The notes: generated from the sequence alone by a model not told the origin. A stretch of 64,000 bases of DNA from an uncultured bacterium (GCA_963716985.1 OY970323.1:928001-992000), one strand, 5' to 3'; positions 20,279-40,681 are shown, counted from the stretch's first letter. Numbers and translations: made by a program.

Positions 20279-21637
20279 TTGTTTGATTGGCTGCGTCCCG
20301 CATCTTTTCCCAAGGAAATCAAAGATGAAACCTTGGTCAAATCACAATATAAGTACTGGCGCATTCGAACTTTTTATGGAATGTATATTGGATATGCCTT
20401 CTATTACTTCACCCGCAAAAGCTTTACTTTTGCGATCCCTTCAATGCTCGATTATGGTTTTACCCTTTCTGAATTAGGGATTTTAGGAACCATCCTCTCC
20501 ATTATTTATGGTTTTAGCAAATTTATCAGCGGAATTTTTGGCGACCGGACAAATCCTCGCTATTTTATGTCCATAGGTCTGATTTTAACAGGCTTCTGCA
20601 ATATCTGTTTCGGACTGTCTTCAACGTGGGTCCTCCTAGCTCTTTTTTGGGGTCTAAATGCCTGGTTCCAGGGTTGGGGATGGCCTGGGTGCGCTAAATT
20701 GCTCACACATTGGTACTCTCAATCGGAAAGAGGAACCTGGTGGAGCTTATGGAATACCTCTCATAACGTAGGCGGAGCCATCATACCTTTGCTCGCTGCC
20801 TTCTGCGTCCAATGCTATGGGTGGCGATTTGCTATGTTCATCCCAGGGATCCTTTGTATTTTGATCGGATTTTTCCTGATGAATCGCCTGCGTGATATTC
20901 CCCAGTCATTAGGGCTTCCTCCGATTGAAAAATTCAGAGGAGAAGTTTGTCAATCGGCTCTCGGAGATGAGACAAAAAACGCTCTACCCATCCGAGAGCT
21001 TCTTTTTAAATATGTTCTTTCTAATAAGTACATTTGGCTCATGGCTTTCGCCTATTTTTTCATCTATATCATACGGACTGGTTTTAATGACTGGTGCATG
21101 GTCTATCTCATTAAGTTTAAAGGCTACTCAGACATGAAAGCCGCAGCCTGTATCCTTTGCTTTGAAATAGGAGGTTTTTTAGGAAGCCTTTTTGCAGGTT
21201 GGTCCTCCGATAAACTATTCGACGGCAAACGCAATCCAGTGAATGTTCTTTTTGCCCTTGGAGCAACCGTGATGCTTCTCGCCATGCATTGGAATGGGAT
21301 GAATTTTCCCTTTTTGGATGGAATCATCATTTTTTTCATCGGTTTTTTTATCTTCGGTCCCCAGATGCTCATTGGGATGGTTGCAGCAGAGCTTACCCAT
21401 AAAAAGGCGGCGGCTACTTCAAGTGGGTTTGCTGGATGTTTTGCATACATAGGCGCTGCCATGGCTGGGGGCCCTCTCGGAAGTCTGATCAGCGCTTGGG
21501 GATGGGACTGTTTTTTTGCCATTTTATGTGCGTGCGGGATTCTAGCCATTGCCTTGATGTCGCCGCTTTGGTCTATCAAAACCACTCCTGAGACAACTTT
21601 GCAAGAAGATGAAAACACAGCCGAGGAGAAAACATGA
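20279..21637 (+). CDS. uhpC: Hexose-phosphate MFS transporter (UhpC/GlpT family)
   Basis: YKYWRIRTFYGMYIGYAFYYFTRKSF, FQGWGWP, SERGTWWSLWNTSHNVGG, FGPQMLIG. Confidence 0.92.
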   Translation: MFDWLRPASFPKEIKDETLVKSQYKYWRIRTFYGMYIGYAFYYFTRKSFTFAIPSMLDYGFTLSELGILGTILSIIYGFSKFISGIFGDRTNPRYFMSIGLILTGFCNICFGLSSTWVLLALFWGLNAWFQGWGWPGCAKLLTHWYSQSERGTWWSLWNTSHNVGGAIIPLLAAFCVQCYGWRFAMFIPGILCILIGFFLMNRLRDIPQSLGLPPIEKFRGEVCQSALGDETKNALPIRELLFKYVLSNKYIWLMAFAYFFIYIIRTGFNDWCMVYLIKFKGYSDMKAAACILCFEIGGFLGSLFAGWSSDKLFDGKRNPVNVLFALGATVMLLAMHWNGMNFPFLDGIIIFFIGFFIFGPQMLIGMVAAELTHKKAAATSSGFAGCFAYIGAAMAGGPLGSLISAWGWDCFFAILCACGILAIALMSPLWSIKTTPETTLQEDENTAEEKT

Positions 21638-22887
21638 AAGTTGCGACCATCATTCTTGCAGGTGGACAAGGAACCAGGCTTCAACCCCTAACAACCCATC
21701 ACTCCAAACCGGCCGTATCCTATGGGGGACGCTACCGCTTGATCGATATTCCCATTTCCAATTCAATCAATTCTGATTTTCGCCAAATTTTTGTAATCAC
21801 CCAATATCTTCCCGAAGAACTACACCATCATATTCACCAAACGTATCGATTTGATACCAAACACCCTGGCTCTCTAGAAATTTTGTCTCCGCAAAAAAAT
21901 CTCAATGGCGAATTGCAGCTATATGCAGGAACAGCTGATGCTGTAAGGAAAAATTTACCTTCCATTCTTAATTCTCCCGCTGACTATTTCCTCATCCTCT
22001 CAGGAGATCAGCTTTATAATATCAATTTTCAGGAAATGATCCAATTTGCCAAATCCAAAAATGCCGAATTGACGATTGCCTCTCTGCCAGTCTCTGAAAA
22101 AGATGCACGAAGGATGGGCCTTCTCAATATTGATCCTCAAAATAAAGTGATTGATTTCATAGAGAAACCCCAAGATCCGCAAGTACTTTGTAAGTTTGAA
22201 CTGTCGAATCGGTTTTTTGAGAATTTCCAAATCTCTCCGCCACTAACTCCTTGTTACCTCGGATCTATGGGGATTTACGTCTTTACAAGAGAGGCCCTTT
22301 GCTCTCTTCTTCATGCCGATCAACGTCATGATTTTGGCTATCATTTAATCACGACGGCCGTCAAAAAAGGAAATACGGTAGCCTATGTTTATAAAGGCTA
22401 TTGGGAAGATATAGGCACAGTAGCGTCTTACTATGAGGCCAATCTTTGCCTTGCTCAATCAGGCAAGGGACTCAACACATATGATCAGAAAAACCCGATC
22501 TATGCCCGTCCAACCTTTCTTCCAGGGCCAAAAATAAAAAGCGCTAAGATCTCTCAATCTATCATCTGCGAAGGGTGCGTCATAGAAGCGGAGGAGATCT
22601 CAAATAGCATCATTGGATTTCGCTCGCATATTAAACAAGGATCGATCATTCGAGATACGATTATGATGGGAAATCACCTTTGCGATGCAACAGGGGTAGA
22701 TTATTGGATTGGAGAAGATTGCCATATTGAAAAAACGATCATTGATGAACGGGTTCAAATCGGCGATCGGGTGAGAATAACGAATCAAAACAAACACGTT
22801 ACTTTTGATGGAGAAGGGATCTTTGTACGCGATGGGATCACAATCATCACAGCAGGGGCAAAAATTCCCGATGGGTATGAGTTTTAA
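21634..22887 (+). CDS. glgC: Glucose-1-phosphate adenylyltransferase
   Basis: ILAGGQGTRL.PLT..SKPAV..GGRYRLIDIPISN, GTADAVR, YWEDIGT. Confidence 0.95.
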   Translation: MKVATIILAGGQGTRLQPLTTHHSKPAVSYGGRYRLIDIPISNSINSDFRQIFVITQYLPEELHHHIHQTYRFDTKHPGSLEILSPQKNLNGELQLYAGTADAVRKNLPSILNSPADYFLILSGDQLYNINFQEMIQFAKSKNAELTIASLPVSEKDARRMGLLNIDPQNKVIDFIEKPQDPQVLCKFELSNRFFENFQISPPLTPCYLGSMGIYVFTREALCSLLHADQRHDFGYHLITTAVKKGNTVAYVYKGYWEDIGTVASYYEANLCLAQSGKGLNTYDQKNPIYARPTFLPGPKIKSAKISQSIICEGCVIEAEEISNSIIGFRSHIKQGSIIRDTIMMGNHLCDATGVDYWIGEDCHIEKTIIDERVQIGDRVRITNQNKHVTFDGEGIFVRDGITIITAGAKIPDGYEF

Positions 22888-22999
22888 AATAAGGTAATTC
22901 ATTTGTACGCGTTCAGAGAATAAGATCAAGAAATACTGTTACAAGCTCCAACGATAAGCTTCGCATCCGCGGAGATGATGTTGCCCAAACGGAGACGAT

Positions 23000-24109
23000 C
23001 TAGGTCTCCGGGGATAAGTTTTTCCAACATTCCCTAGCGATCTCAAATGCTTCTTGTGTATGGATCAAAAGGACTTTAACTTTTGAATCAGAAGAAGAAA
23101 GTACGCGGTCTTCGGGAGCTTTTGATTGATGTTTAGAGAGATGAATCCCTAGAAAAGCAAACGAATCGCAGACTTGCTGTCTGATAGGAAAAGCATTTTC
23201 TCCAATTCCTCCAGTGAAAACAAGGGCATCTATGCCGCCAAGCGTTGCTATCATCGATCCAATCAGCGAGACTAGCCGATGAACATAGATATCGATCGCG
23301 AGTCTGGCTCGTGCATTGCCTTGGCTTGCTTTGTCTAAAATATCGCGCATATCGCTTGATATCCCAGAAATACCTAGCAACCCTGATTCTTCATAGAGTT
23401 CTTTTGAGAGTTCATCAGGAGTCTTGTCTTTAGATAGATAGAGAAGAATGCCGGGATCGACAGTGCCGGAGCGAGTATCCATCATTAAGCCTTCCAATGG
23501 AGTAAATCCCATCGTGGTATCGATGCTTTTCCCATTCTTAAGGGCGCAAAGAGAAGCTCCAGAGCCTAAATGGCAAATCACCAGTTTAGGGTGTTCTTGT
23601 TCTAAAAAATGCTTCGCCCTTCTCGAACAATATTGAAAACTGGTTCCATGGAACCCAAATCTCTGAATCCCTTCCTCAAACCACTTGTATGGACCAGGAT
23701 AAATAGCTGCATAGGCTGGCATCGTGTGATGAAAAGCCGTATCAAAAACAGCTATCTGCGGAATGTCTGGAAAGAGCTGCTCTAAAATCTCGATTCCTTC
23801 AAGGTCCGCCAAATTATGGAGGGGAGCGAGATCGGCAAGTTTGCGGATTTCCTTTTTTACTTCATTGTCAATCAAGACGCTTGTTTGGTACTTTTTGCCG
23901 CCATGAACAATCCGGTGGCCAATACAACGGATCTCTTTATCCGCAAGGAGGGATTTAAGCTCCTTTTTGATTGAGCCCTTTGTTTGAATGTTTTTCCATT
24001 CAATTTTGTCTTCCCAAATTGGATCAACCAGTTTATCTGGAAAGTTTGCAAAATCGTATATGCAGCATTTTATACTGCTCGATCCTCTATTTAAGACTAA
24101 TATTTTCAT
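23000..24109 (-). CDS. ackA: Acetate kinase
   Basis: [50 protein letters not shown]. Confidence 0.95.
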
Positions 24110-24161
24110 GTTTCACAAATATCACAAAATAAGTCAGTATGCGAGAAAAAAGGCTATTATC

Positions 24162-26522
24162 ATGTCAGCGCCCCTCTCTAAAGATCTCTTGCAAAAAATG
24201 AACGCCTATTGGCGTGCTGCGAACTATCTATCGGTCGGTCAGATTTACCTATACGACAATCCTCTGCTGAAGCGGGAACTAGTATTGTCTGATGTGAAGC
24301 CGTTGGTTGTAGGTCACTGGGGGACAACGCCGGGGCAGAACTTCATCTATGTGCATTTGAATCGGGTTATCAAGAAATACGATCTGAATATGTTCTATAT
24401 CGCCGGTCCTGGCCATGGCGGCCCGGCATTGGTGGGAAATACTTACCTCGAAGGTTCTTATACTGAGATTTATCCGGACATAAGCCAAGACGAAGATGGA
24501 ATGAAAAAGCTGTTCACGCAATTTTCGTTTCCTGGGGGAATTTCAAGTCACGTTGCTCCAACGACTCCAGGTTCAATCCACGAAGGGGGCGAGTTGGGGT
24601 ATTCTCTTAGTCATGCTTTCGGAGCTGTGTTCGACAATCCTGATCTTGTCGTGGCTTGCGTAATTGGCGACGGCGAAGCAGAAACTGGCCCCTTGGCAAC
24701 TGCATGGCAGTCCAATAAATTTCTTGACCCAATTACCGATGGAGCTGTGCTGCCCATCCTGCACCTCAATGGTTTCAAGATCAGCAATCCAACTGTCCTG
24801 TCCCGCATTGAACATGAGGAACTTGAGAAATTTTTCCAAGGCTGTGGTTGGACGCCTTATTTTGTGGAAGGGGATGATCCAGAGATAATGCATCAACTCA
24901 TGGCAGAAATTTTAGACAAGGCCGTTGAAGAGATTCGACAAATCCAAAGAAACGCGCGCGCGAACAATGACACCACTCGGCGTCGTTGGCCGATGATTGT
25001 CCTGAGGTCGCCTAAAGGTTGGACAGGGCCAAAATTTGTCGATGGTCTGAAAATTGAGGGGACATTTAGAGCACATCAAGTACCTCTTTTGGTAAATCCC
25101 GAGCATCCTGAGCATGTTCAACTGCTGGAAACCTGGATGAAAAGCTACAAGGCAGAAGAACTATTCGATGAGAATGGGAGACTTATTCCAGAATTGGCTG
25201 AGCTAGCGCCGAAGGGTAATCAACGGATGGGCGCTAATCCTCACGCTAATGGCGGTATTTTATTACGCGATTTGCGAATGCCAGACTTTCACGATCACGC
25301 GGTGAATGTGCCGTCCCCTGGCGCTGTAAATGCCGAAGACACTCTAGTTCTGGGCAATTTCCTTCGCGACGTGGCCAAGCTGAATCAGGATCAACGCAAT
25401 TTCCGCGTTTTCGGACCTGATGAGACTCTTTCGAATCTCTTGGGAGCAGTCTTTGAGGTCACCAATCGTCAGTGGGATGCTCGGGAAGTAAAAAATGATG
25501 AGTTCCTTGCTCCACAAGGACAAGTGCTTGATTCGATGCTGAGTGAGCACCAGTGCGAGGGGTGGTTGGAAGGCTATTTGCTAACAGGGCGCCACGGGCT
25601 GTTCAACAGCTATGAGGCGTTCATTCGGATCGTCGATTCGATGTTCAGCCAGCATGCCAAGTGGCTAAAAGTATGCTTAGAACTTCCTTGGCGTCGGAAG
25701 ATCTCATCGCTGAACTACCTGCTCGCCTCTCATGTCTGGCAGCAGGATCACAACGGTTTCACGCATCAGGATCCAGGCTTTCTTGACCATGTGATCAATA
25801 AGAAGGCCACGATTGTGCGCGTTTACTTACCGCCCGATGCCAACTGCCTACTATCAGTCTTTGATCATTGCTTGCGCAGTCGAAATTATGTCAATGTGGT
25901 GGTGGCTGGAAAACACCCACTCCCTCAATGGCTGAACATGGACGCTGCGGTGATCCATTGCACAGAGGGAATTGGGATCTGGCAATGGGCTAGTAACGAC
26001 CAGAATGATGAGCCTGACGTAGTGATGGGCTGCTGCGGAGATACTCCAACGCTCGAGGTTTTAGCTGCTGTTTCAATCCTTCGAGAACATCTGCCCGATC
26101 TGAAAATCAGGGTAGTCAATGTTGTCGATCTGATGAAACTACAGCCTCAAAGCGAGCATCCGCATGGACTTTCCGACAAAGATTACGATTCGCTTTTCAC
26201 AAAAGATAAGCACATCATCTTTAATTTCCATGGATACCCATGGCTGATCCATCGACTAACTTATCGTCGAAACAACCGCAATCTCCATGTTAGAGGCTAT
26301 AAAGAAGAAGGTACAATCACGACTCCGTTTGATTTGAGAGTGCAAAATGATATCGATCGGTTCCACCTGGTGCAAGACGTGGTTGATCGCTTACCACATT
26401 TAGGCGGCAAGGGATCCTATCTAAAGCAGATGATGCAAGATAAGCTGATCGAGCATAAGCACTACGTAGACAAGCACGGTCAAGATATGCCCGAAATCCG
26501 GAACTGGAAATGGGGTCAATAA
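24162..26522 (+). CDS. xfp: Xylulose-5-P/fructose-6-P phosphoketolase
   Basis: [54 protein letters not shown]. Likely start is ATG 24162. Confidence 0.96.
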
Positions 26523-26526
26523 AGAT

Positions 26527-27645
26527 ATGAAAGACAATCCCTTAAAGAAAGTGGGAGTTCTCGGTCAGTCAATCTGGCTCGACTATATCAGACGAGATCT
26601 CCTCGTCAGTGGAGAACTCAAACGTATGATTAAGGAGGACGGACTGCGGGGGATGACCTCGAATCCTTCCATCTTTGAGAAGGCTATTGCTGACAGCCAT
26701 GATTACGATAAGGATATTCAAGTTATGGTACGTGAGGGAAAAGACGTAAAGGCCATCTATGAATCTATCAGTCAGCAAGACGTACGAAGCGCCGCTGATC
26801 AGTTCCGTCCTTTGTATAACGAGACTGAAGGAAAAGATGGATATGTAAGTCTAGAGGTCAATCCTCACCTAGCGCACGACACTAAAGGCACAATCGAAGA
26901 GGCGAGGAAGTTATGGGCTGCGCTGAACAGGCCCAACGTCTTAATCAAGGTACCAGCGACTAAAGAAGGGCTGCCTGTCATCCAGCAACTCATCAGCGAA
27001 GGAATCAACGTCAATGTTACGTTGCTTTTTGGGATCCCTCGCTATCGTCAAGTTGTGGAAGCTTATCTTAAAGGCATCGAAGCGCGCGCGAACCAAGAAA
27101 AACCTGTAAAGATGGTGGCCTCTGTGGCTAGCTTCTTTTTGAGTCGCATCGATGTGTTGGTCGATCCCATGCTCGAAAAATTCATCGTTAAAGGTGGCAA
27201 AGATGCAGAATTAGCAAAAATGCTACATGGACAGATTGCTATCGCCAGTGCGAAGGCGGCCTATCAAATCTACAAGGAACTATTCGATAGTGTTCGGTTT
27301 AAGAAATTAGCTGATCAGGGAGCCTTTACTCAGAGGCTTCTCTGGGCTAGCACCAGCACGAAGAATCCGAAGTATAGCGATGTGTTATACATCGACTCCC
27401 TGATCGGAAAGGACACCATAAACACTATTCCGCTCGAAACTCTCGATGCGTATCGCGACCATGGCAATCCAAAAGATCGTATCGAACAAGAGGTTGTGAA
27501 GGCTCAATGGATGTTAGATCAATTGCCAAACTTAAGTATCAGCATCGATCATTTAACACAGCAGCTTGAAAACGAAGGAGTTGAAAAGTTTAGCATTTCC
27601 TTTGATAAACTGATGAAAGCCTTGGAAAAAGCGGTGCAAAAGTGA
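26527..27645 (+). CDS. tal: Transaldolase
   Basis: [39 protein letters not shown]. Confidence 0.95.
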
Positions 27646-30320: not shown

Positions 30321-31089
30321 TTCATCCCATCGAACCCCTGTGATTGCGGCTAACTGGAAAATGTATAAGACGATTGAAGAAGCAGTGCATTTTGTGAAGA
30401 GTTTGATTCCTTTAATTCAAGATGTTCCCGTTAAGGTCTATATTGCAGTTCCGTATACAGCGCTATATTCTGCTGCCTCTGAAGCCAAAGGTTCTTCTAT
30501 CGTGATGGGAGCGCAAAACATGTACGATGCTACCGAAGGTGCTTTCACTGGAGAAATTTCGGCGAATATGTTGAAAGATGCGGGAGCGAAATTTGTCATC
30601 TTAGGCCATTCAGAACGGCGGCGCCTTTTTCACGAAACGAACGCTTTCATTCGTCGCAAGGTTGAAAAAGCCTTATCGGAAAGCCTGCAACCCATTTTCT
30701 GCATCGGAGAAACGGAGCAAGAGCGTGAAGGTGGAAAAACAGAAGAAATTCTAAAACAACAATTGGATCAATCTCTAGGCAATATCTCTGCCGAACAGAT
30801 GACATCCATCATTCTAGCTTACGAACCTATCTGGGCTATTGGATCTGGTAAGTCAGCTCTTCCAAAAAAAGTTCAAGCAGTGCACGCATTTTGCCGTCAG
30901 TGGGTGAGCGAAAAGTGGGGGAAAGAAACAGCTCAAAAAATAATTATTCTGTACGGTGGTTCAGTGCATCCTAATGATACTAAGGATTTCATGGAACAAC
31001 CAGATGTAGATGGCGTATTAGTGGGAGGCGCTTCGCTCAAGGTAGAATCGTTTAATCAAATTATCCACTATCCAATCGTAAGAAAATAA
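30310..31089 (+). CDS. tpiA: Triose-phosphate isomerase
   Basis: [31 protein letters not shown]. Confidence 0.96.
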
Positions 31090-31227: not shown

Positions 31228-31665
31228 ATGACAAAACTAGTTAAGGATGTTATGAATAAGGCCCCAAAAGCCATACACCCAGAAGAACCGATTCATAAAG
31301 CGGCTTCACTGATGCACAAACATGACATTAGTCATCTGCCAGTCATCGACGATGATAAACAAGTGGTTGGCCACGTTCATACTAATGATGTTCTCAAAGC
31401 AGTAGCTGAGCAAAAACCTCATACTACTCCTGTCAAACACATTATGAGCGAGCCGCCAGTAGTATTGCCGGAAAATACCCCTATACATGAAGCGGCTAAT
31501 CAGCTTGCTAAAGCAAAAGTTAAAGGAGCTGCTGCAGTAAACGACAACGGAGAGCTAAGCGGATTCGTTCATGCTCGTGATATTGAAGAAAAAGTGCCAG
31601 ATGCTAAACCGCATGTGGATAAAATTCTTAATGCCACTAAGCATAACCCCAAAAAAGCTGCTTAA
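31228..31665 (+). CDS. CBS-domain pair protein
   Basis: VKDVM, LPVID..VVG, VKHIM; AGGAG RBS. Confidence 0.85.
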   Translation: MTKLVKDVMNKAPKAIHPEEPIHKAASLMHKHDISHLPVIDDDKQVVGHVHTNDVLKAVAEQKPHTTPVKHIMSEPPVVLPENTPIHEAANQLAKAKVKGAAAVNDNGELSGFVHARDIEEKVPDAKPHVDKILNATKHNPKKAA

Positions 31666-31812: not shown

Positions 31813-34800
31813 ATGGAACCTGATGCCGATAACTCCAAAGCTCCAGAATCGAAGGTTCCGGCTAGAGCTTCGTCCAAAACTCCTGCAACAAAGTCAGGAT
31901 CGCAGCCTGATGCGAAGGAAGATCTAAAGTCCTTGTCTTTGGCTGAAGTGGGAAAAAAATTGGGATTCTCGCCGGAAGGACTCACAGAGGCTGAGGCGGC
32001 GAAGCGATTGACCCAATATGGTCCTAACGAGCTTGAAGAAAAGAAATCTCATCCGCTTTTAAAATTTCTCTCCTATTTTTGGGGTCCTATTCCATGGATG
32101 ATCGAGATAGCGGTGATTCTATCTGGGGTAGTTCGTCACTGGCCCGATTTTTTCATTATCCTCCTTTTGCTTTTTTCTAACGCCATAGTCGGATTCTGGG
32201 AGGAGCGTCAAGCAGCCAACGAGATTGCCGCCTTGAAGGCTAAGCTGGCGGTCAAGGCTCGGGTGATACGAGACGGGAAATGGATCAATCCAGCGGCGCG
32301 CGAGTTGGTTCCAGGCGACGTCATTCGATTGCGCCAGGGCGATATAGTGCCTGCGGATGCGCGGCTTTTGGATGGCGATCCGGTAGAGGTGGATCAATCT
32401 GCGCTGACAGGAGAGTCGCTGCCTGTAACGTGTAAAAGTGGCGGGGCCGTGTTCTCGGGATCGATTGTCCGCCAGGGCGAAATCGGTGCACTCGTCTACG
32501 GCACCGGTATGAACACCTACTTCGGTAAGACAGCACAATTGGTGCAGGAAGCACACACCGTCAGCCATTTTCAAAAGGCTGTTTTAAAAATCGGCAATTA
32601 TCTGATCATCTTAGCCGGCGTTTTGGTTGCTGGAATCATAACTGTTGCAATCTTTCGGGGAGATCCGATCCTCACCACGCTGCAATTCGCTTTGGTGCTG
32701 ACCGTGGCCTCTATCCCGGTAGCGATGCCGACAGTATTGTCGGTAACGATGGCAGTCGGCGCGCGCCTGCTCGCAAGAAAGCAAGCGATTGTGAGCCGCT
32801 TAGTCGCCATCGAGGAGTTAGCAGGAGTGGACATATTGTGCGCGGACAAGACCGGCACTCTGACTCAAAACAAGTTGACGCTGGGCGATCCATTCAGCGT
32901 GAATAATATCCCAAAGGAACAAGTCATCCTCAATGGCGCGTTAGCATCGCGTGCAGACAATAACGATACGATTGATTTGGCCGTTCTCGGCGGTCTGAAA
33001 AACAAAGATGCGCTGAAAGGGTACCAGATGGGCCATTTCCAACCATTCGATGCAGTGCATAAACGGACTGAAGCTACGATCAAGGGATCAGAAGGTAAAG
33101 AGTTCAAGGTGACGAAAGGCGCGCCGCAAGTGATTTTGGCATTATCAGCCAATCTAACCCAAGTGAAGGATGCTGTTGAAAAAGCAGTTAACGAATTTGC
33201 TGCGCGCGGATTTCGATCGCTCGGCGTTGCTCGGGACGATGGAAGCGGGTGGCAATTTCTCGGGGTCCTACCCCTGTTTGATCCACCGCGGGAAGATGCT
33301 AAAGCGACGATTGCGACCGCAACTCAAATGGGCGTGAAAGTTAAGATGGTCACGGGTGATCAAATGGCCATCGCGAAGGAAACTGCAAAAAAATTAGGGA
33401 TGGGCACAAACATCCTCGATGCTACGGGTCTTGGCGATGTAAAGAAGCAAGAGACCACCGAGATGGCCGAGTCTATCGAGAAGTGTGATGGTTTTGCCCA
33501 GGTATTCCCTGCACACAAGTTCCATATTGTGGATGTGTTGCAAAAACGAGGCCATCTTGTCGGCATGACTGGCGACGGGGTAAATGACGCCCCTGCGCTG
33601 AAAAAAGCCGACTGCGGCATCGCCGTTTCAAGCGCGACAGATGCGGCGCGCGCGGCAGCAGCCATTGTGCTGTTAACGCCCGGCCTATCGGTGATTATCG
33701 ATGCGATCAAAGAAAGTCGGAAAATTTTCCAGCGGATGAACAGTTACGCGATCTACCGCATCGCCGAGACGCTCCGCGTACTATTTTTCATGACACTGGC
33801 CATCCTGGTGTTTAACTTCTATCCAGTGACGGCAGTGATGATTGTGATGCTGGCGCTTCTGAACGATGGCGCCATCCTATCCATTGCTTATGACAATGTT
33901 CATTATAAGGATCAGCCTGAAGCCTGGAACATGCGCATGGTCTTAGGAGTAGCTACAGCTCTGGGCTTGATCGGGGTCGTGGCCGCTTTTGGCCTATTTT
34001 ATCTCGGTGAGAGAGTCTTTCATCTCGACCGCCCACATATCCAGACGCTGATGTATTTGAAGTTGTCTGTGGCTGGACACCTGACGATTTTCCTGACCCG
34101 TACGCGCGGTCCATTCTGGACCATCCGCCCTGCGCGGATTTTATGGGGAGCAGTACTGGGTACGCAAATGGTGGCCACTTTGATTGCGGTTTTCGGGTTC
34201 CTTATGACCCCTCTCGGCTGGAAATGGGCAGGTTTTGTTTGGGTCTATGCGCTTGCCTGGTTCCTCGTAAATGACCAAGTCAAATGGCTTGCCTACCGGA
34301 TTTTCGATCCGGTTAAGAAACCTAAGACTGATGCCAAGGCTGGATCTCAGCCTGTGAGCAAGCCAGAGCCAAAACCAGATACTAAACTTAAGAACAAAGA
34401 AGGGGCTATGCCTGAAGACAATGCCAAACCAAAGCCTGACGATAAAGCAAAGTCTAAACCAGAAGGTGCTGCCGAACCAAAACCTGGCGACGCTAAAGGT
34501 GCTAAACCAGAAGGTGCCGCTGAGCCTGCACCAGGTGCCAAAGCCGAGCCAAAACCTGACGACGCTAAAGGTGCCAAACCAGAAGGTGCTGCTGACCTTA
34601 AGCCAAGCGCTAAAGCGGAACCAAAACCAGACGATGCCAAGCCTAAGCCTGAAGAGGTCGGACACTCGGATACGACATCGGGGCAAAATTTCATCCATGT
34701 GCATATGGATAAGGAGGCAGTCGATGTCTACATTGCCGGTCCTGGTCACAGCGGGCCCGGTATCCCTGAACACAAGGATGAGTCAAAGCCAGAAGGCAAA

Positions 34801-34956
34801 ACAGAACCAAAATCTGAAAACACACCTTCTGATTTGACAGAGCAGATCAAGAAACGCGCCCAAGAGCTATACGAGAAACGGGGAAGGCAAGAGGGTCATG
34901 CAGATGAGGACTGGAGCCAAGCAGAGAAGGAAATTCGGAAAGAAAAAAACAAATGA
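31813..34956 (+). CDS. P-type H+-exporting ATPase (P3A) with repeat tail and DUF2934-like C-terminus
   Basis: WGPIPWMIE, DQSALTGES, IPVAMPTV, DKTGT, KGAPQ, TGDGVNDAPALK, LND; tail QIKKRAQELYE.RG...G...DW..AE.EI. Confidence 0.93.
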   Translation: MEPDADNSKAPESKVPARASSKTPATKSGSQPDAKEDLKSLSLAEVGKKLGFSPEGLTEAEAAKRLTQYGPNELEEKKSHPLLKFLSYFWGPIPWMIEIAVILSGVVRHWPDFFIILLLLFSNAIVGFWEERQAANEIAALKAKLAVKARVIRDGKWINPAARELVPGDVIRLRQGDIVPADARLLDGDPVEVDQSALTGESLPVTCKSGGAVFSGSIVRQGEIGALVYGTGMNTYFGKTAQLVQEAHTVSHFQKAVLKIGNYLIILAGVLVAGIITVAIFRGDPILTTLQFALVLTVASIPVAMPTVLSVTMAVGARLLARKQAIVSRLVAIEELAGVDILCADKTGTLTQNKLTLGDPFSVNNIPKEQVILNGALASRADNNDTIDLAVLGGLKNKDALKGYQMGHFQPFDAVHKRTEATIKGSEGKEFKVTKGAPQVILALSANLTQVKDAVEKAVNEFAARGFRSLGVARDDGSGWQFLGVLPLFDPPREDAKATIATATQMGVKVKMVTGDQMAIAKETAKKLGMGTNILDATGLGDVKKQETTEMAESIEKCDGFAQVFPAHKFHIVDVLQKRGHLVGMTGDGVNDAPALKKADCGIAVSSATDAARAAAAIVLLTPGLSVIIDAIKESRKIFQRMNSYAIYRIAETLRVLFFMTLAILVFNFYPVTAVMIVMLALLNDGAILSIAYDNVHYKDQPEAWNMRMVLGVATALGLIGVVAAFGLFYLGERVFHLDRPHIQTLMYLKLSVAGHLTIFLTRTRGPFWTIRPARILWGAVLGTQMVATLIAVFGFLMTPLGWKWAGFVWVYALAWFLVNDQVKWLAYRIFDPVKKPKTDAKAGSQPVSKPEPKPDTKLKNKEGAMPEDNAKPKPDDKAKSKPEGAAEPKPGDAKGAKPEGAAEPAPGAKAEPKPDDAKGAKPEGAADLKPSAKAEPKPDDAKPKPEEVGHSDTTSGQNFIHVHMDKEAVDVYIAGPGHSGPGIPEHKDESKPEGKTEPKSENTPSDLTEQIKKRAQELYEKRGRQEGHADEDWSQAEKEIRKEKNK
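34330..34650 (+). repeat. Degenerate coding tandem repeats (AKPEGAAEPKPDD)
   Basis: Recurrent AAACCAGAAGGTGC and GACGCTAAAGGTGC units. Confidence 0.8.
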
Positions 34957-35570
34957 AGAAAAAGATTCAATTCACTCATTTATTTCTAGATGTCGGCGGT
35001 GTTTTGCTCACCAATGGGTGGGATCATCATGCACGTAAACGCGCCGCAGCGAAGTTTAAGCTAAAGTATTCCGATATGGATGATCGGCATCGCTTGACGT
35101 TTGAAATCTACGAAAAAGGCAAACTTTCGCTGGAAGAATATTTGAATTTGGTGGTCTTCTACCAAAAACGCCCGTTCACAAGAGCCCAGTTTTGGCGCTT
35201 CATCTGTGCGCAGTCAAAACCTTACTCTGAGATGATCGAGCTTTCAAAGCAGCTTAAAGTAAAATATGGACTGAAGATCGTCGTAGTTAGCAACGAAGCC
35301 CGCGAACTGAATGCATATCGAATTCGAAAGTTTAAGCTGGACGGCTTTGTAGATTCCTTTATCTCCTCCTGTTTGGTCCACCTCCGTAAGCCCGACGCAG
35401 AAATCTTTCGTCTTGCATTAGACATCGCCCAGGCAGACCCGAAGAAGGTAATCTATATCGAAAACACACCAATGTTTGTCCAGATTGCTGAAGATTTTGG
35501 GATCAGGAGCATTCTCCATACAGATTATAAATCGACGTGTGCAAAATTGGTTTCGATCGGATTAATGTAG
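34953..35570 (+). CDS. HAD-family phosphatase
   Basis: LFLDVGGVL, VSN, RKPD.EIF. Confidence 0.88.
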   Translation: MKKKIQFTHLFLDVGGVLLTNGWDHHARKRAAAKFKLKYSDMDDRHRLTFEIYEKGKLSLEEYLNLVVFYQKRPFTRAQFWRFICAQSKPYSEMIELSKQLKVKYGLKIVVVSNEARELNAYRIRKFKLDGFVDSFISSCLVHLRKPDAEIFRLALDIAQADPKKVIYIENTPMFVQIAEDFGIRSILHTDYKSTCAKLVSIGLM

Positions 35571-35590
35571 TGAACTAAAAAGGAAATCAC

Positions 35591-36523
35591 GTGAAAAACA
35601 AAAGCTCATTTTCTTCATTAATATTCTTTGTCATTCTTTTGATTGGCGCGGTACTGGCATATCTCCTGTATAAAAGTTCTAATGGTTACGAAATTTACTA
35701 TGTTTTTGGAGGTGCTCTTTTCATTGCCTACGTCGCAACAACTGCCACTAAAGTGGCAAATCAGTGGGACAGGGCCGTCGTTTTACGATTGGGCCATTTT
35801 CACTCTTTAAGAGGGCCGGGATTATTTTTTATCATTCCGGTTATCGATACAATTCCTTTCTGGATCGACATCCGGGTCATCACGACCTCGTTCAAAGCGG
35901 AAAAAACTCTGACCAAAGATACCGTGCCTGTCGACGTCGATGCGGTTCTTTTTTGGAAAGTGATCGATCCTAAAAAGGCCGCTCTAGAGGTAGCCGATTA
36001 CGAAAGCGCTATTGGATGGGCATCGCAAACAGCTTTACGCGATGTGATTGGCAAGACAATGCTTTCTGACATGCTTGAAGGACGAAACAAAATTAGCAAT
36101 GAGCTGCAAGTAATCATCGATGAGAGGACTGAACCTTGGGGAGTCAATGTGATTTCAGTTGAAGTCAAAGATGTCCTGATTCCTCCCGCCTTGGAAGATG
36201 CGATGTCCATGCAAGCGCAGGCAGAAAGAGAGCGTCAAGCACGGGTTATTCTTGGAGATTCAGAAAGGCAAGTGGCAGAAAAGTTTGGCGAAGCGGCGAA
36301 GACCTATATCAATAATCCTGTCGCATTGCATTTAAGGGCAATGAACATGCTTTATGAGGGATTAAAAGCGAACTCTACTATCGTCATGGTTCCTAGCTCG
36401 GCCATTGAAACAATGCAACTGGGAGGTCTTGCGGGGATTACGGCCTTGACTATGGGCCTAGATCAAAAGCAACCAAGCAATGCAAAAAGAGATGAAATAG
36501 AGAATAAGCCTAGGGAAGGATGA
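35591..36523 (+). CDS. SPFH/band-7 (slipin) membrane protein
   Basis: RAVVLRLG, GPGLFFIIPVID, QTALRDVIG, QAERERQA. Confidence 0.9.
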   Translation: MKNKSSFSSLIFFVILLIGAVLAYLLYKSSNGYEIYYVFGGALFIAYVATTATKVANQWDRAVVLRLGHFHSLRGPGLFFIIPVIDTIPFWIDIRVITTSFKAEKTLTKDTVPVDVDAVLFWKVIDPKKAALEVADYESAIGWASQTALRDVIGKTMLSDMLEGRNKISNELQVIIDERTEPWGVNVISVEVKDVLIPPALEDAMSMQAQAERERQARVILGDSERQVAEKFGEAAKTYINNPVALHLRAMNMLYEGLKANSTIVMVPSSAIETMQLGGLAGITALTMGLDQKQPSNAKRDEIENKPREG

Positions 36524-36530
36524 AAGAGAA

Positions 36531-39029
36531 ATGGATCAGCATGATATAAGTCAAAAAGCCAATATAAAAGGATACGATTCTCTAGAGGATCTCGCCTTAA
36601 ATCTGCGCTCGTCTTGGAATCATAGTACCGATGCGGTATGGCGACAGCTCGATCCAGAATTATGGGAGCTGACGCAGAATCCTTGGGCTGTTTTGCAGGC
36701 ATCCTCAAAAGACAAGCTTACCAAGATGTTAGCGGATCAAAAATTTAGCACTCTTGTTGAAACCCTCCTGAAAGCTAGAAAGGATAGCTTAAGCGCCCCC
36801 ACTTGGTTTCAGGAAAATCACTCTAAGTCATCCTTGAGCTGCATCGCCTACTTTTGCATGGAATATATGTTAAGCGAATCACTTCCAATTTATTCTGGCG
36901 GTCTGGGCAACGTTGCTGGAGATCAGCTTAAAGCTGCAAGCGATCTTGGGGTGCCGGTCTTCGCCATTGGATTGCTCTATGCCCAGGGCTATTTCCGACA
37001 GATCATCGATAAAAATGGGAATCAACAAGAACTTTATCCCTATAATGATCCAGGACAAATGCCCATCAGGCCACTACGAAAGCCGGACGGAGAATGGCTC
37101 CGCTTGAAAATCGAATTACCTGACTGGTCTCTTTGGCTCCGCACATGGGAAGTCAAGGTAGGTAGAAGAACGCTTTATTTATTGGACAGCAATGATACAG
37201 CCAATGTCCCCGCTCATAGAGGGATTACTAGCGAGCTTTATGGAGGGGATCGGGAATTACGCTTAAAACAAGAGATCGTTTTAGGTCTTGGCGGATGGCG
37301 TCTTCTTAACGCTCTTGGCATACAACCTGAAGTTTGCCATATGAATGAAGGTCATGCGGCTTTTCTTGTATTAGAACGGGCCTTTGGTTTTATGCAAAAA
37401 ACGAAACAACCGTTCGAAGTAGCGTTGGCAGCCACGCGAATAGGCAATCTCTTCACAACCCATACCGCAGAACCCTCCGGGTTCGATCAGTTTTCTCCCG
37501 ATCTCATTTGGAAATATTTGGGGAAATACGCAGAAACTAAACTGGGCATACCATTTAAGAGGTTTCTTTCTCTTGGCCAGTTAAATCCAAATGACGATTT
37601 TAATATGGCCTATTTAGCTATCCGAGGAAGCGGCTTTGTCAATGGCGTGAGTCAATTGCATGGTGTAGTCAGCAGGCATCTGTTTAGAGATTTATTTCCT
37701 CGATTTCCCGAAGGAGAAGTCCCAGTTGGATCTGTGACGAATGGAGTCCATATGCCGACTTGGGATTCATCTGTATCTGACGATCTTTGGACTAAGAGCT
37801 GTGGAAAAGGGCGATGGTTGGGTAAACTCGAGGATCTAGAGAATAAGATACGCGCTGTTCCAGATACGGAAATTTGGCAAATGCGCAATGAATCGAGAGC
37901 CTCTCTTGTTGACTATACGCGCATCCGATTAGCAAAACAGTTGCAAGCGAGAGGAGCCTCTGATGATGAGATTGAGAGGATAAAATCCTTTTTAAATCCG
38001 AATGCTTTAACTCTAGGTTTTGCCCGTAGATTTGCCGCTTACAAAAGGCCTGATTTACTCCTTACCGATGAAGATCGACTTCTCCGCATATTGACCAATA
38101 AGGATCGACCTGTACAGCTCATTCTTGCCGGCAAAGCACATCCTGCCGATGCTGAGGGGCATGCTCTAATCAAAAGATGGATGAAATTCATTTCCAGACC
38201 CGAAGCTCGCCCCCATGTCATTTTTCTCAGCGATTACGACATGATTTTAACAGAACATCTCGTTCAGGGAGTCGATTTATGGATCAATACTCCCAGACGG
38301 CCTTGGGAAGCAAGTGGAACAAGCGGAATGAAGATCCTCGTTAATGGAGGCTTGAATCTTTCAGAATTAGACGGCTGGTGGGCGGAAGCTTATACTCCTG
38401 AAGTCGGTTGGGCACTCGGAGACCGCAAGGAACATGGAGAAGATCCCAACTGGGACCATGCGGAGGCAAACACTCTTTATGATCTCTTGGAAAACGAAGT
38501 GATCCCTGAATTTTACACATGGGATGCCAGAATGATGCCTATGACCTGGATAACAAAAATCCGCGAGAGTATGGCGCTTCTGACACCTCATTTTTCTTCC
38601 AATCGGACAGTGCGTGAATATACAGAGAAATTCTATCTTCCAGCAGCGACAAATTATCGGAAGCGAATTGAAAATAATGGAGTTCTTGCGAAACAAATCA
38701 TCGATTGGCGAAGCAGGGTAGAACAGAATTGGGGCAAATTGGGATTTGGTGAAATGAAAATCGAAGACAAAAATGGCCAACATCTATTTGAAATTCAGGT
38801 CTATCTCAACGATCTGGACCACCAGGCAGTTACTGTGGAGCTTTATTCGGCAGCTTTAAAAAAAGAAATGAAATATCAGGGACCGATTCCCAACACTCGG
38901 GATGGGCATATTTATCGAGCAGAGGTTCCCGCAGCAAATCCAGCATCTAGTTTTACCCCCCGAATTATACCACATTTCCTAGGCGTTGCGGTTCCCCTCG
39001 AATCGACTCAAATTTTATGGCAAAAATGA
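36531..39029 (+). CDS. glgP: Alpha-glucan (glycogen) phosphorylase
   Basis: YSGGLG, HMNEGH, GFARRFAAYKR, EASGTSGMK. Confidence 0.94.
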   Translation: MDQHDISQKANIKGYDSLEDLALNLRSSWNHSTDAVWRQLDPELWELTQNPWAVLQASSKDKLTKMLADQKFSTLVETLLKARKDSLSAPTWFQENHSKSSLSCIAYFCMEYMLSESLPIYSGGLGNVAGDQLKAASDLGVPVFAIGLLYAQGYFRQIIDKNGNQQELYPYNDPGQMPIRPLRKPDGEWLRLKIELPDWSLWLRTWEVKVGRRTLYLLDSNDTANVPAHRGITSELYGGDRELRLKQEIVLGLGGWRLLNALGIQPEVCHMNEGHAAFLVLERAFGFMQKTKQPFEVALAATRIGNLFTTHTAEPSGFDQFSPDLIWKYLGKYAETKLGIPFKRFLSLGQLNPNDDFNMAYLAIRGSGFVNGVSQLHGVVSRHLFRDLFPRFPEGEVPVGSVTNGVHMPTWDSSVSDDLWTKSCGKGRWLGKLEDLENKIRAVPDTEIWQMRNESRASLVDYTRIRLAKQLQARGASDDEIERIKSFLNPNALTLGFARRFAAYKRPDLLLTDEDRLLRILTNKDRPVQLILAGKAHPADAEGHALIKRWMKFISRPEARPHVIFLSDYDMILTEHLVQGVDLWINTPRRPWEASGTSGMKILVNGGLNLSELDGWWAEAYTPEVGWALGDRKEHGEDPNWDHAEANTLYDLLENEVIPEFYTWDARMMPMTWITKIRESMALLTPHFSSNRTVREYTEKFYLPAATNYRKRIENNGVLAKQIIDWRSRVEQNWGKLGFGEMKIEDKNGQHLFEIQVYLNDLDHQAVTVELYSAALKKEMKYQGPIPNTRDGHIYRAEVPAANPASSFTPRIIPHFLGVAVPLESTQILWQK

Positions 39030-40681
39030 AGATCAGCCCACTTGCAGGAAAACTACCTCCGCCGGACTTACTGATTCACGTCCCTGATTTGATCGAGGCT
39101 TATTATAGTGGCCTGCCAGATCCATCCATTCCAAGAGAGCGGGTTGCATTTGGCACTTCGGGGCATCGTGGTTCTTCTTTAGATAAGAGCTTTAATGAGC
39201 ATCACATTCTCGCGATAACCCAAGCAATTTGTTTATACCGAACAAAGCACAAGATCGACGGCCCCTTGTTTCTCGGGATGGACACACATGCCCTTTCCGG
39301 CCCTGCCTTAAAAAGTGCCATCGAAGTGCTCGCTGCGAATGGAGTCACCGTGATGTTATCCGATGGAGATGAATATACTCCAACTCCTGTCATTTCCCAT
39401 GCGATTCTCACTTACAATCACGGCAAAAGACTCGGGTTAGCTGATGGCATTGTGATTACCCCCTCGCACAACCCTCCAGACCAAGGCGGCTTTAAATACG
39501 ATCCGCCAAATGGAGGCCCTGCGGAAACTGAGGTCACCAATTGGATTCAAGACAAAGCCAATGAACTGCTCGAAAACAAGTTATCGGGCGTAAAGAGAAT
39601 CCCATATGAAAAGGCACTCTATTCTTCTACGACGCAAAGACACAATTACCAAAAAGCATATATTAGCGACCTTGGCAATGTAATCGATATGGAAGCCATC
39701 CGCAAATCAAAGATCCGCATTGGAGTAGATCCTCTTGGCGGCGCTGGAGTCCACTACTGGAAGCCCATCTCTGAAATGTACGGAATCGATCTCACAGTTG
39801 TAAGGGAAACGGTAGATCCTACCTTTCGCTTTATGACAGTCGATTGGGATGGAAAGATTCGGATGGATCCTTCTTCTCCTTATGCCATGCAAGGATTGAT
39901 CGGAATGAAAGACCGTTTTGATATTGCCTTTGCCTGTGATACCGATTACGACAGACATGGAATTGTCACCAAAAGTTCAGGGTTACTGCCGCCGAATCAT
40001 TATCTCTCTGCAGCTATCCTTTATCTTTTTCAGCATCGGCTTAAGTGGCAAAAGAGCGCTGCCGTAGGCAAGACTCTCGTTAGCAGCCAGATGATCGATC
40101 GCGTTACCGCAAAGCTGGGACGAAAACTCTATGAAGTGCCTGTAGGCTTCAAATGGTTCGTCGATGGCTTGTTAGACGGTTCTCTTGGTTTTGCAGGCGA
40201 AGAGAGCGCAGGAGCTGTATTTCCTCGCTTGGATGGGACGATATGGACAACAGACAAAGACGGCATTATTTTAGCTTTACTTGCTGCGGAGATGATGGCA
40301 AAGCTTGGAAAAGACCCAGGGGAACTCTATCAGGATTTAATTCGTGAATTTGGTGAGCCTGCATACGCCTTAGTCGAGGCCCCTGCTACACCAGCGCAAA
40401 AAGAGATATTAAAAAACCTATCTCCAAAGAGCATCCAATCTAAGACGCTAGCTGGTGAAGAGATCAGTTCCATTTTGACCAAGGCGCCTGGAAATGGCGC
40501 TCCAATCGGAGGATTGAAAGTGACAACAGCGAACGGGTGGTTTGCTGCCCGTCCCTCAGGTACAGAAGATATCTATAAAATATATGGAGAAAGTTTCCTA
40601 GGAGTTGCTCATCTGGATCGTATTCTGAAAGAGGCTCAAATAATAGTAAATGAGGCATTAGACAAGGGCATCAAATTGTAG
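39017..40681 (+). CDS. pgm: Phosphoglucomutase
   Basis: FGTSGHRG, TPSHNPP, DTDYDRH, GEESAG, RPSGTE. Confidence 0.95.
   Translation: MAKMKISPLAGKLPPPDLLIHVPDLIEAYYSGLPDPSIPRERVAFGTSGHRGSSLDKSFNEHHILAITQAICLYRTKHKIDGPLFLGMDTHALSGPALKSAIEVLAANGVTVMLSDGDEYTPTPVISHAILTYNHGKRLGLADGIVITPSHNPPDQGGFKYDPPNGGPAETEVTNWIQDKANELLENKLSGVKRIPYEKALYSSTTQRHNYQKAYISDLGNVIDMEAIRKSKIRIGVDPLGGAGVHYWKPISEMYGIDLTVVRETVDPTFRFMTVDWDGKIRMDPSSPYAMQGLIGMKDRFDIAFACDTDYDRHGIVTKSSGLLPPNHYLSAAILYLFQHRLKWQKSAAVGKTLVSSQMIDRVTAKLGRKLYEVPVGFKWFVDGLLDGSLGFAGEESAGAVFPRLDGTIWTTDKDGIILALLAAEMMAKLGKDPGELYQDLIREFGEPAYALVEAPATPAQKEILKNLSPKSIQSKTLAGEEISSILTKAPGNGAPIGGLKVTTANGWFAARPSGTEDIYKIYGESFLGVAHLDRILKEAQIIVNEALDKGIKL

Follow-up and report, generated by a model that had tools for sequence, protein, structure and literature searches.

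A tRNA-inserted chlamydial island with a phosphoketolase, acetate kinase and glycogen cassette and a possible role in ATP-gated survival

What would a soil chlamydia gain from a tRNA-inserted island whose cargo runs from hexose-phosphate import and glycogen to acetate and proton pumping, and does that cargo move as a unit? We addressed these questions in a 64,000-nucleotide stretch of DNA from an uncultured bacterium (GCA_963716985.1 OY970323.1:928001-992000; the window). A sequence-only reading had placed the cargo between att repeats with an intact integrase, and we found a 29.3 kb island bounded by a CAU-anticodon tRNA and a direct repeat of that tRNA's 3' half, with an intact integrase inside (Table 1). 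The tRNA is probably Ile2 rather than Met, because the genome has two other CAU tRNAs. The distal att copy bears a T-stem variant seen in the tRNA of G001, the one same-genus genome. A genome-wide match search of the 2.07-Mb genome found only four further att copies, all within 111 kb upstream, and of five stacked islands this one lies innermost. The inner end repeat, which recurs with att copies both here and in the genomes G174, G138, G406 and G287, is probably an arm-type site of the integrase.

Table 1. Features of the island and its ends, in window positions
Feature	Position	Strand	Evidence or comparison
Distal att copy (displaced 3' half of CAU tRNA), left end of island	12713..12760	-	46/48 nt vs 42033-42080
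Inner end repeat	12867..12886	.	20/20 match to 41931-41950
Accessory block: AbiEi-like, hypothetical, YhcG nuclease, HicB, hypothetical	13019..16393	.	Pfam
Second tyrosine recombinase int2, backbone	16646..17782	+	Pfam PF00589, PHROG 1
Backbone: hypothetical, small excisionase-like gene, HTH replication-initiator-like gene	17679..19965	+	
UhpC-type hexose-phosphate transporter, second copy	20279..21637	+	57% to core copy
GlgC, second copy	21634..22887	+	54% to core copy
Acetate kinase AckA, sole genome copy	23000..24109	-	TIGR00016 above cut-off; no second match
Phosphoketolase Xfp, sole genome copy	24162..26522	+	
Transaldolase	26527..27645	+	Type differs from core TalB
Class I fructose-bisphosphate aldolase fused to glucose-6-phosphate isomerase, 892 aa	27642..30320	+	
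Triose-phosphate isomerase, second copy	30310..31089	+	50% to core, 75% to G379
Stand-alone CBS-pair protein	31228..31665	+	Pfam CBS x2
P3A plasma-membrane H+-ATPase	31813..34956	+	TIGR01647 1058.7 vs cut-off 615.5
HAD-IA hydrolase, altered motifs	34953..35570	+	
SPFH/Band 7 membrane protein	35591..36523	+	84-94% in G332, G379, G344
Alpha-glucan phosphorylase	36531..39029	+	TIGR02094; type differs from core GlgP
Phosphoglucomutase	39017..40681	+	TIGR01132 above cut-off; type differs from core enzyme
Integrase int1, adjoins tRNA	40807..41892	-	Full length, intact; PF00589, PHROG 1
Inner end repeat adjoining tRNA	41931..41954	.	
Integration site, CAU-anticodon tRNA	42033..42107	-	ARAGORN: Met

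The cargo was as first named, but int2, the replication-type gene and the AbiEi, YhcG and HicB genes (13019-19965) had been missed. Integrase int1 is 89% identical to the integrase of a sibling island and 86% to that of G174, and int2, which is 85-86% identical to two copies in neighbouring islands, forms its own clade. The remaining backbone genes had no Pfam or PHROG match and align with G138 at 82.6% nucleotide identity over 3.5 kb; by our own reading of a protein without a family match the small gene may be excisionase-like, and the candidate replication gene scores 0.92-0.93 to phage HTH/RepA_N clusters in Atlas, a lead only. Family searches recognised in the island neither a relaxase nor type IV secretion genes, the pair that marks an integrative conjugative element, and PF03135 (VirB4), the one family searched in the host genome, had no match there. 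A PHROG search found no capsid or terminase in the island; of the hallmarks of a phage satellite (integrase, excisionase/AlpA, replication gene, helper-hijacking genes) it has the integrases and, as candidates only, the Atlas lead for replication and the small gene of no known family. Composition is weak evidence, because GC is close to the genome mean and, for codon use, no island gene but xfp, the pump and rep ranks in the lowest 3%. Promoter and terminator scans of the island gave matches at chance level, and no promoter or regulator was found.

The cargo had been proposed to be transferable and site-specifically integrated, and comparison with relatives bears this out. G001 (99% complete) has the same tRNA and flanking orthologues around ~4.9 kb of different insert, a site that is not strictly empty and comes from one genome, and we found no xfp, ackA or island-type pgm in it. 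Near their close xfp copies, 7 of 34 relatives from six families have this att site, the stretch examined in the other 27 showing no copy; the cargo is therefore mobile. G174 and G138, from another family, have the same tRNA, arm repeat and backbone and carry an xfp cassette that is shorter. In the Xfp tree the island protein groups with G138 and G283 (SH-aLRT 97) and next with G379 and G052 (98), and monophyly of chlamydial Xfp is rejected (p-AU 0.00013, 23 chosen rows). Vertical inheritance of the whole cluster is ruled out by the G001 site, this topology test and the att copies near xfp. Overstated, however, was the idea of 13 genes as one fixed module: the best relative keeps 10 of the 13 in a different order, and per-gene comparisons give a different closest relative from gene to gene; the cargo is a mosaic. 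The most constant member is xfp, which heads a long co-directional run, and many relatives retain only ackA-xfp, with or without the pump. Sibling islands add qNor, bo3 oxidase, CsbD, BON, ADH or NiFe hydrogenase, and near-identical island pieces occur on short contigs of soil metagenomes, with small shares in peat and wetland runs; among the sequencing runs listed, none of RNA contained them. In many lineages xfp-ackA has settled within core genes.

All 13 cargo genes proved to be open frames that best match the families named for them. Scores exceed the curated NCBIfam cut-off for ackA, xfp, tal, fba and pgi (one fusion), tpiA, the P3A H+-ATPase, glgP and pgm; for uhpC and glgC the best family is the correct one at a score below it, and CBS, HAD and SPFH are assigned at Pfam level. 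The expected catalytic motifs occur in xfp, ackA, pma, tal, tpi, pgm, glgP, fba and pgi. The import and glycogen genes duplicate core functions. Island UhpC clades with second copies of G028, G217 and G172 (SH-aLRT 100), and a frameshift in its gene, raised by an out-of-frame ATG 4 nt upstream, is ruled out by the TTG start kept in G028. GlgC is 90% identical to that of G028, GlgP is 24% identical to core GlgP and 88% to that of G283, and the island-type phosphoglucomutase occurs in 45 of 399 other Chlamydiota. The closest named relatives of the transaldolase lie in Omnitrophota (81%) and Syntrophales (82%). The longest xfp ORF begins at 23988; 24162 is the probable start, which leaves 52 nt to that of the divergent ackA. 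Sequencing error as the origin of the Fba::Pgi fusion is ruled out by an identical junction in eight other proteins, including one from G287 at 88%; searching named genomes with the fusion returned mostly ordinary pgi loci, with xfp at most 10 kb away in 4 of 80. The CBS-pair protein is a possible adenylate sensor, and the H+-ATPase tail holds a Pro/Lys/Glu repeat, an xfp-like relic and DUF2934.

The HAD protein had been suggested as a fructose-bisphosphatase (FBPase), for which neither its motifs nor its relatives speak. Under motif rules that we presume to apply, the second Asp of motif I is missing and E-N replaces the motif IV acids; the protein lacks the marks of HAD-type FBPase/SBPase, resembles uncharacterised HAD-IA/YihX-like proteins and may have some phosphatase activity. 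Such an FBPase is also unnecessary, because the core PPi-dependent Pfk would cover that step. Searches found no class I or II FBPase in the genome, and PPi-Pfk could run backwards.

The host core encodes PFO and an [FeFe] hydrogenase (HydABC), no oxidase was found in the genome, and from its gene content the host looks anaerobic. Also in the core are Tkt, Rpe, RpiA, PPi-Pfk (above cut-off), a membrane PPase, GapA, Pgk, Eno, Pyk and an acetate-CoA-ligase-like protein; Tkt, Rpi, Rpe, GlgA and GlgB, correctly noted as missing from the island, are all there. The non-oxidative glycolysis enzymes Xfp, Tal, Tkt, Rpi, Rpe, Tpi and Fba thus sit in one cell, divided between island and core. Motif and HMM checks of the genome found no hydrogenase maturase (HydE, HydF, HydG), leaving the H2 sink uncertain, and zwf and gnd were not found in this genome. 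Neither Pta (PTA_PTB) nor PduL had a match in it (controls positive in 10 and 2 of 14 genomes); the phosphotransacetylase of Pta-AckA acetate fermentation is thus missing, and Xfp is therefore the only known acetyl-phosphate source for AckA.

From this inventory we infer a route in which GlgP and Pgm would free glucosyl units from glycogen, or UhpC would bring in host G6P; Pgi would yield F6P, Xfp would split F6P and X5P to acetyl-phosphate, and AckA would turn this into ATP. The remainder would be recycled by Tal, Fba and Tpi together with Tkt, Rpi and Rpe of the core and a reversed core PPi-Pfk, for a predicted yield of at most 3 ATP, 3 acetate and 1 PPi from each glucosyl unit of glycogen, with zero NADH. 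The ATP would most plausibly go to the P3A pump, keeping membrane potential and pH, and the role would be survival, letting a symbiont that does not respire outlast a failure of its hydrogenase sink or of host ATP. In a linear programme of reactions chosen by us, with kinetics ignored, the core alone was infeasible without an H2 sink, core plus island gave 3 ATP per glucosyl with no redox step, and the island alone could not run at steady state; with an open H2 sink the core gave 5-6 ATP per glucosyl and the island added zero. On stoichiometry, the flux resembling non-oxidative glycolysis that had been put forward could run with Tkt, Rpi and Rpe of the core plus a reversible PPi-Pfk. Hypoxia, offered as its setting, is probably the host's normal state, so that a fall in ATP or a block of the electron sink is the likelier trigger.

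The same core enzymes bear on a different reading, in which Xfp-AckA is a shunt beside lower glycolysis (a bifid shunt, or pentose/nucleoside salvage): X5P or F6P would give acetyl-phosphate and G3P, the G3P would be oxidised with NADH passed to hydrogenase, and the gain would be bypass of the PPi-requiring Pfk or use of host pentoses rather than complete redox neutrality. GapA, Pgk, Eno, Pyk, PFO, HydABC and the ligase-like protein would serve it, an earlier linear programme without a PPi source or ligase gave 3.5 ATP for island plus hydrogenase with the core alone infeasible, zwf-gnd adjoin the G379 and G344 cassettes, and the pared-down ackA-xfp(-pump) sets of many relatives suit it. We nevertheless think it rather unlikely, given that the island supplies its own recycling enzymes (Tal, Fba, Tpi, Pgi), that the H2 sink is uncertain and that zwf and gnd are lacking here.

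The sequence of Xfp fits an emergency role. The island enzyme, whose best solved relative is 8io8, keeps all eight SeXPK ATP-inhibition residues in an alignment to 8io8 and the motif of PMC10365998, with a spacing of X6 rather than X7 that makes the loop one residue shorter than in SeXPK; the motif Trp is lost in the closest siblings (G138, G174, G283, G379). Island Xfp is accordingly predicted to be ATP-inhibited, and the route would therefore open as ATP drops. The anatomy, the mobility and the gene inventory are shown directly: a two-integrase island, whose insertion site is the CAU tRNA in several chlamydial families, combines here a mosaic version of a pan-bacterial phosphoketolase, acetate kinase, glucan phosphorylase and ion-pump cassette with chlamydial uhpC-glgC. 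We hold with moderate confidence that it serves ATP-gated survival rather than a growth pathway. The pump could instead be the point of the cargo, exporting protons in acid soil or an acidified vacuole while GlgP, Pgm and HAD set the G1P/glucose pool and Xfp-AckA adds a minor ATP top-up. The P3A pump does not follow Xfp (it occurs in 14 of 30 Xfp-positive and 5 of 20 Xfp-negative genomes), HAD is weakly like the G1P phosphatase YihX, and soil metagenomes yield the near-identical pieces, but the leading and most constant position of xfp and the altered HAD motifs make this primary role in acid tolerance or glucose handling very improbable.

Does the pairing extend beyond this island? Xfp occurs in 167 of 399 other Chlamydiota, and AckA was present in 79 of 80 Xfp-positive versus 4 of 70 Xfp-negative genomes, a co-occurrence that holds even where the genes are unlinked. 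Only 8 of the 80 Xfp-positive genomes have Pta, and PduL as a hidden Pta is ruled out (0 of 80). AckA thus tracks Xfp, not Pta, in the searched genomes, which challenges the published pyruvate-Pta-AckA reading. These counts also weigh on the view that the cargo is roughly neutral baggage from amoebal and soil gene pools, persisting a while before decay. Sibling backbone bearing unrelated PKS/NRPS and restriction-modification cargo, broken cassettes in four relatives (G174, G287, G344, G406), core genes that duplicate most island functions and a G001 that lives without the island would all fit it; against this, the 13 frames and the catalytic motifs are intact, the set is functionally coherent despite several sources, and Xfp with AckA stays together when unlinked and is core-settled in many lineages, and we judge baggage improbable.

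We give about an even chance to the broader proposal that in most environmental chlamydiae AckA partners phosphoketolase rather than Pta, the Pta route being mostly an annotation artefact outside one family, and that redox-free Xfp-AckA ATP from hexose phosphate or glycogen was repeatedly acquired from soil bacteria and continues to spread among families on the two-integrase tRNA island, supplying ATP independent of host and electron acceptor, probably in the extracellular stage. In the mostly open literature we found no paper on phosphoketolase in chlamydiae, as cluster or transfer, although supplementary tables of PMC8242063 and PMC9816063 may list xfp. The proposal touches on the ATP and membrane potential of elementary bodies outside the host, on why every chlamydia keeps glycogen and on how environmental lineages cope with anoxic hosts. 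If true, an ATP-gated Xfp-AckA route would link glycogen to ATP without electron acceptors and correct the current chlamydial fermentation map; it can be tested directly in cultured Parachlamydiaceae and relatives. Here an identifiable element moves central-metabolism genes from family to family among obligate intracellular bacteria.

The non-oxidative glycolysis reportedly engineered by Bogorad, Lin and Liao in 2013 uses Xfp, Tal, Tkt, Rpi, Rpe, Tpi and Fba with an FBP-to-F6P step to give 3 acetyl-phosphate per F6P; unlike it, the present route would split its enzymes between island and core and would use reverse PPi-Pfk as the FBPase step, in a stoichiometric model only. According to passages of PMC10365998, the XPK-ACK pair of Synechococcus elongatus serves survival in dark anoxia, and Parachlamydiaceae are listed among carriers of the ATP motif. 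The likeness lies in the use of Xfp and AckA as a pair for making ATP in anoxia or low-energy stress, proposed for the island, and in the eight ATP-binding residues; unlike the cyanobacterium, the island host is obligate intracellular and without a Calvin cycle, its motif loop is one residue shorter, and the pair sits on a mobile island linked to a glucan phosphorylase, a transporter and a pump. The chlamydial route in the main text of PMC8242063 leads from pyruvate to acetate via PDC/PFO with Pta and AckA, or acetate-CoA ligase; that text leaves phosphoketolase unmentioned, and a table there lists K01621 in 47 of 111 genomes. The island host shares AckA as the ATP-forming step and, with PFO, acetate-CoA ligase and trimeric [FeFe] hydrogenase, fits the anaerobic family described in those sections, but it differs in having no Pta.

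By description, and assuming identity, island GlgP resembles glgP2, a patchily spread second glucan phosphorylase carried on plasmids of Simkania negevensis and Protochlamydia naegleriophila; the passages of PMC7935935 on glgP2 do not link it to xfp. The Burkholderia cenocepacia lxa locus, which the relevant sections of PMC3721108 do not judge a genomic island, likewise clusters anoxic-persistence genes including acetate kinase, a function that the island would share by inference; lxa has AckA with Pta and six universal stress proteins, those sections are without phosphoketolase, and the island genes include neither a USP nor Pta. Chlamydial tRNA islands are reported, for example in Protochlamydia UWE25 (PMC548262). 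Like tandem tRNA-targeting tyrosine-integrase islands and phage-satellite-like elements, ours combines a tRNA-adjacent integrase, a duplicated tRNA 3' half and stacked insertions; unlike them it has two integrases and a replication-type gene, with no conjugation or capsid gene recognised. Annotated records also place xfp-ackA-glgP-pgm-pgi-fba clusters on plasmids of Methylophaga thalassica, Polymorphobacter sp., Methylotuvimicrobium alcaliphilum 20Z and Nitrobacter hamburgensis. In the stretch seen these have no uhpC, glgC or tRNA-integrating backbone, and two large clusters carry tkt, zwf, gnd, rpe or N-ATPase, unlike the island; they share its gene families (xfp, fba, pgi, pgm and glgP are 52-77% identical) and its location on mobile DNA, and this type of cassette is not unique to chlamydiae.

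All 13 genes named in the sequence-only reading (uhpC, glgC, ackA, xfp, tal, the fba::pgi fusion, tpiA, CBS, the P3A H+-ATPase pump, HAD, SPFH, glgP and pgm) are open frames at the positions assigned to them and match their named families. The att-bounded cassette with an intact integrase was likewise borne out in the host genome, a single 2.07 Mb contig that is 99.5% complete: a CAU-anticodon tRNA and a copy of its 3' half bound the island, with a repeat of 20-24 nt just within each end, and the island also carries a second integrase (int2), a small gene, a replication-initiator-like gene (rep), AbiEi, YhcG and HicB. The genome has just four other att copies, all of them in the 111 kb upstream, indicating that the island is the innermost of five stacked elements. 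A sibling island has int1 and the int2-rep backbone in common (82-85% nucleotide identity), with PKS/NRPS and restriction genes as cargo. The T-stem variant of the tRNA is identical beside both int1-family islands, and that of the same-genus genome G001 differs by a compensated pair swap, a pattern consistent with each incoming element bringing along the tRNA 3' half.

Coordinates of the island, its surroundings and related loci (plain positions, window, which corresponds to G000:C1 928001-992000; L numbers, genome stretches under local coordinates; G000, host; other G numbers, other Chlamydiota genomes)
Feature	Position	Strand	Remark
CAU-anticodon tRNA	42033-42107	minus	one boundary of island
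Copy of tRNA 3' half	12713-12760		far boundary; 46/48 nt
int1, intact tyrosine integrase	40807-41892		abuts tRNA
Five-island stack	G000:C1 858783-970107		111 kb, at one CAU tRNA; stack ends at window position 42107
Neighbouring island	1-12712		int3 and DUF927 primase/helicase; DISARM-like DrmD helicase interrupted by IS1634, adjoining DNA methyltransferase gene
RND efflux block	42446-48101		between tRNA and core genes
Relic in pump tail	34642-34764		in frame; 59% identity to Xfp residues 45-90
G379 island	L243-L245 (G379:C4 20167-67508)		also bo3 oxidase, qNor nitric-oxide reductase, gnd-zwf, CsbD, BON
Other fusion, G344	L259:767-2413		class I Fba and Tpi-like fragment, 548 aa
NiFe hydrogenase operon or hyp maturation genes adjoining xfp-pump	L262-L263 (G261); L255-L256 (G332)
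Trimeric NADH-dependent [FeFe] hydrogenase	L318:8747-12989 = G000:C1 1348747-1352989		above curated cut-off
N-ATPase beta subunit	L322:8420-9283		truncated, 287 aa
RlmN-type radical SAM gene	L327:5453-6568		sole one scanned; best models Cfr-family, below cut-off (390.6 vs 530)
AAA_26 + DRTGG proteins	L278:760-1905; L279:808-1923; L280:817-1956

The int3 family of the neighbouring island also occurs at the CAU tRNA in G013, G028 and G174, and the G001 orthologue of the RND efflux block is on a separate contig, not near the tRNA. The Xfp-like relic was absent from the eight sibling pumps examined.

The search for empty att sites that had been proposed yielded a near-empty one in G001 (99% complete), the only same-genus genome, where about 4.9 kb of other DNA separates the same tRNA and orthologous flanking genes; G001 has no xfp, ackA or island-type pgm. 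The G174 genome, one contig from a different family, matches both the tRNA (82/82 nt) and the end repeat (49/49) at every position; its int1 matches at 86%, the int2-rep module is there too, and the cargo is had-ackA-xfp-pump. G138 combines the backbone (82.6% nucleotide identity across 3.5 kb) with ackA-xfp-pump, and in G379 an att-bounded island of 47 kb holds 10 of the 13 genes, differently ordered. Among 34 xfp neighbourhoods of relatives (7-100 kb each, picked mostly by similarity), seven from six families (f1, f7, f27, f30, f32, f35) contain an att copy of the CAU tRNA near xfp, and six an integrase or rep gene. The remaining 27 contain no att copy, and several complete genomes have ackA-xfp-pump among core genes. 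The cargo is thus mobile in some lineages and settled in others, and we consider mobility of the cargo highly probable.

The idea of one cassette fared less well, since the closest copies differ gene by gene in source genome and the cargo, in sequence comparison, reads as a mosaic. The closest copies found were in G028, of the same family, for uhpC, glgC and ackA (92%, 90% and 87%); G138 and G174 for xfp (91%); G311, G283 and G138 for the pump (88%); G283 for glgP (88%); G287 for Fba::Pgi (88%); G379 for tpi (75%); G174 for HAD (80%); and G284 for pgm (83%). UhpC, found in 226 of 230 genomes, is a core gene; the island copy and three further second copies make up a separate clade, and two of those three directly adjoin xfp or ackA. 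The island Xfp shares 85-88% identity with proteins named from Bryobacteraceae, Verrucomicrobiia, Methylocapsa, Nostoc and Ignavibacteriaceae. With 23 chosen rows, it clustered with copies of families f7, f30 and f17, and a single clade for chlamydial Xfp was rejected by the AU test (p=0.00013); an 81-row FastTree agreed with this grouping at weaker support.

The core genome encodes PFO, a trimeric [FeFe] hydrogenase, PDH, PPi-dependent Pfk, pyruvate kinase, PEP synthase, Glk, GlgX, a membrane pyrophosphatase, an anaerobic RNR activase and an acetate-CoA-ligase-like protein scoring slightly below its cut-off. As had been anticipated, it also supplies Tkt, Rpe, RpiA and GlgA, while GlgB, MalQ, GapA, Pgk and Eno are presumably present, having matched by sequence motif only. 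Pta, PduL, class I and II FBPase and cytochrome bd were not found in the host genome, nor were bo3, qNor, zwf and gnd by tblastn; a motif search, a weak test, gave no match for TCA enzymes. HydE, HydF and HydG were not found by motif and HMM checks, in which visual inspection served for four radical-SAM proteins. The searches run revealed no F-type ATPase subunit besides the truncated N-ATPase beta. The host fits the non-respiring fermenters as described in section 10 of PMC8242063.

We then calculated ATP per glycogen glucosyl by a small linear programme using core and island enzymes, with an H2 sink open or shut. With the sink open, the core yields 5-6 ATP and the island contributes 0; with it shut, the core is infeasible, and core plus island yield 3 ATP and 1 PPi, a solution requiring Tkt, Rpi, Rpe, Tal and reverse PPi-Pfk. 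Island enzymes without the core are infeasible. Non-oxidative glycolysis, as the sequence-only reading had it, is therefore feasible with core enzymes, though it would serve as a lower-yielding backup. The HAD protein, suggested as its FBPase, is a poor candidate for that activity, and the step does not require it. Xfp aligns to the ATP-inhibited Synechococcus enzyme and retains motif residues P, W, H, Y, R, H, R and R, although its motif loop is one residue shorter; the motif Trp is missing in four close siblings. A P3A pump transports roughly one proton for each ATP, so export of all three acetate protons would use up the whole ATP yield. Judged from gene content, the island would use reserve carbon to keep the membrane energised so that the cell survives, and would not supply net ATP for growth; a redox-free backup function seems somewhat favoured.

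A screen that scored 399 other Chlamydiota genomes, all but one of those available, detected Xfp in 167, with 0/29 in family f28. AckA was present in 79 of 80 Xfp-positive genomes (at least 95% complete, the first 80 of 97 listed) versus 4 of 70 hand-picked Xfp-negative genomes. Pta (PF01515) was found in eight of the Xfp-positive genomes, every one from family f31, and in the same four Xfp-negative genomes that have AckA; PduL was found in none of the 80. Both coordinates were listed for 73 genomes, and in 38 of them ackA and xfp are no more than 4 kb apart (34/45 outside f30 and f31; 3/19 within f30). Because kin are non-independent, all of these counts overstate the number of events. Recounting the rows shown of the PMC8242063 table gave AckA in 44 of 47 xfp-positive genomes, 24 of these 44 with no Pta under any KO and 14 with group 05EF2 alone, a group also listed in 10 genomes without AckA. 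Among the table's 16 AckA-positive genomes without xfp, 12 have another Pta group, indicating a genuine Pta-AckA route in certain lineages. Of the five genomes tested, three encode a protein of ~375 aa (AAA_26 + DRTGG) with the N-terminal Pta domains only and no Pta catalytic domain. We infer that these proteins are group 05EF2, and they are probably what KO-based annotation labels Pta in chlamydiae. Xfp-AckA coupling may replace the accepted Pta-AckA reading.

The island is real, its cargo mobile and its parts already known. Neither PMC8242063 nor PMC9816063 uses the word 'phosphoketolase' in its main text, and we found no paper that treats chlamydial Xfp or the cluster described here, subscription journals and some supplements lying outside coverage. 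One sentence in PMC10365998 places Parachlamydiaceae among ATP-motif carriers, and PMC7935935 describes chlamydial plasmids with a second glucan phosphorylase. Interest lies in the chlamydial setting, in which an identifiable element shifts central metabolism among families of obligate intracellular bacteria, and in the Xfp-AckA coupling. The cassette type is pan-bacterial, and plasmids of unrelated Proteobacteria bear similar clusters. The lxa locus, as described, has a survival theme in common with the island but differs in its enzymes.
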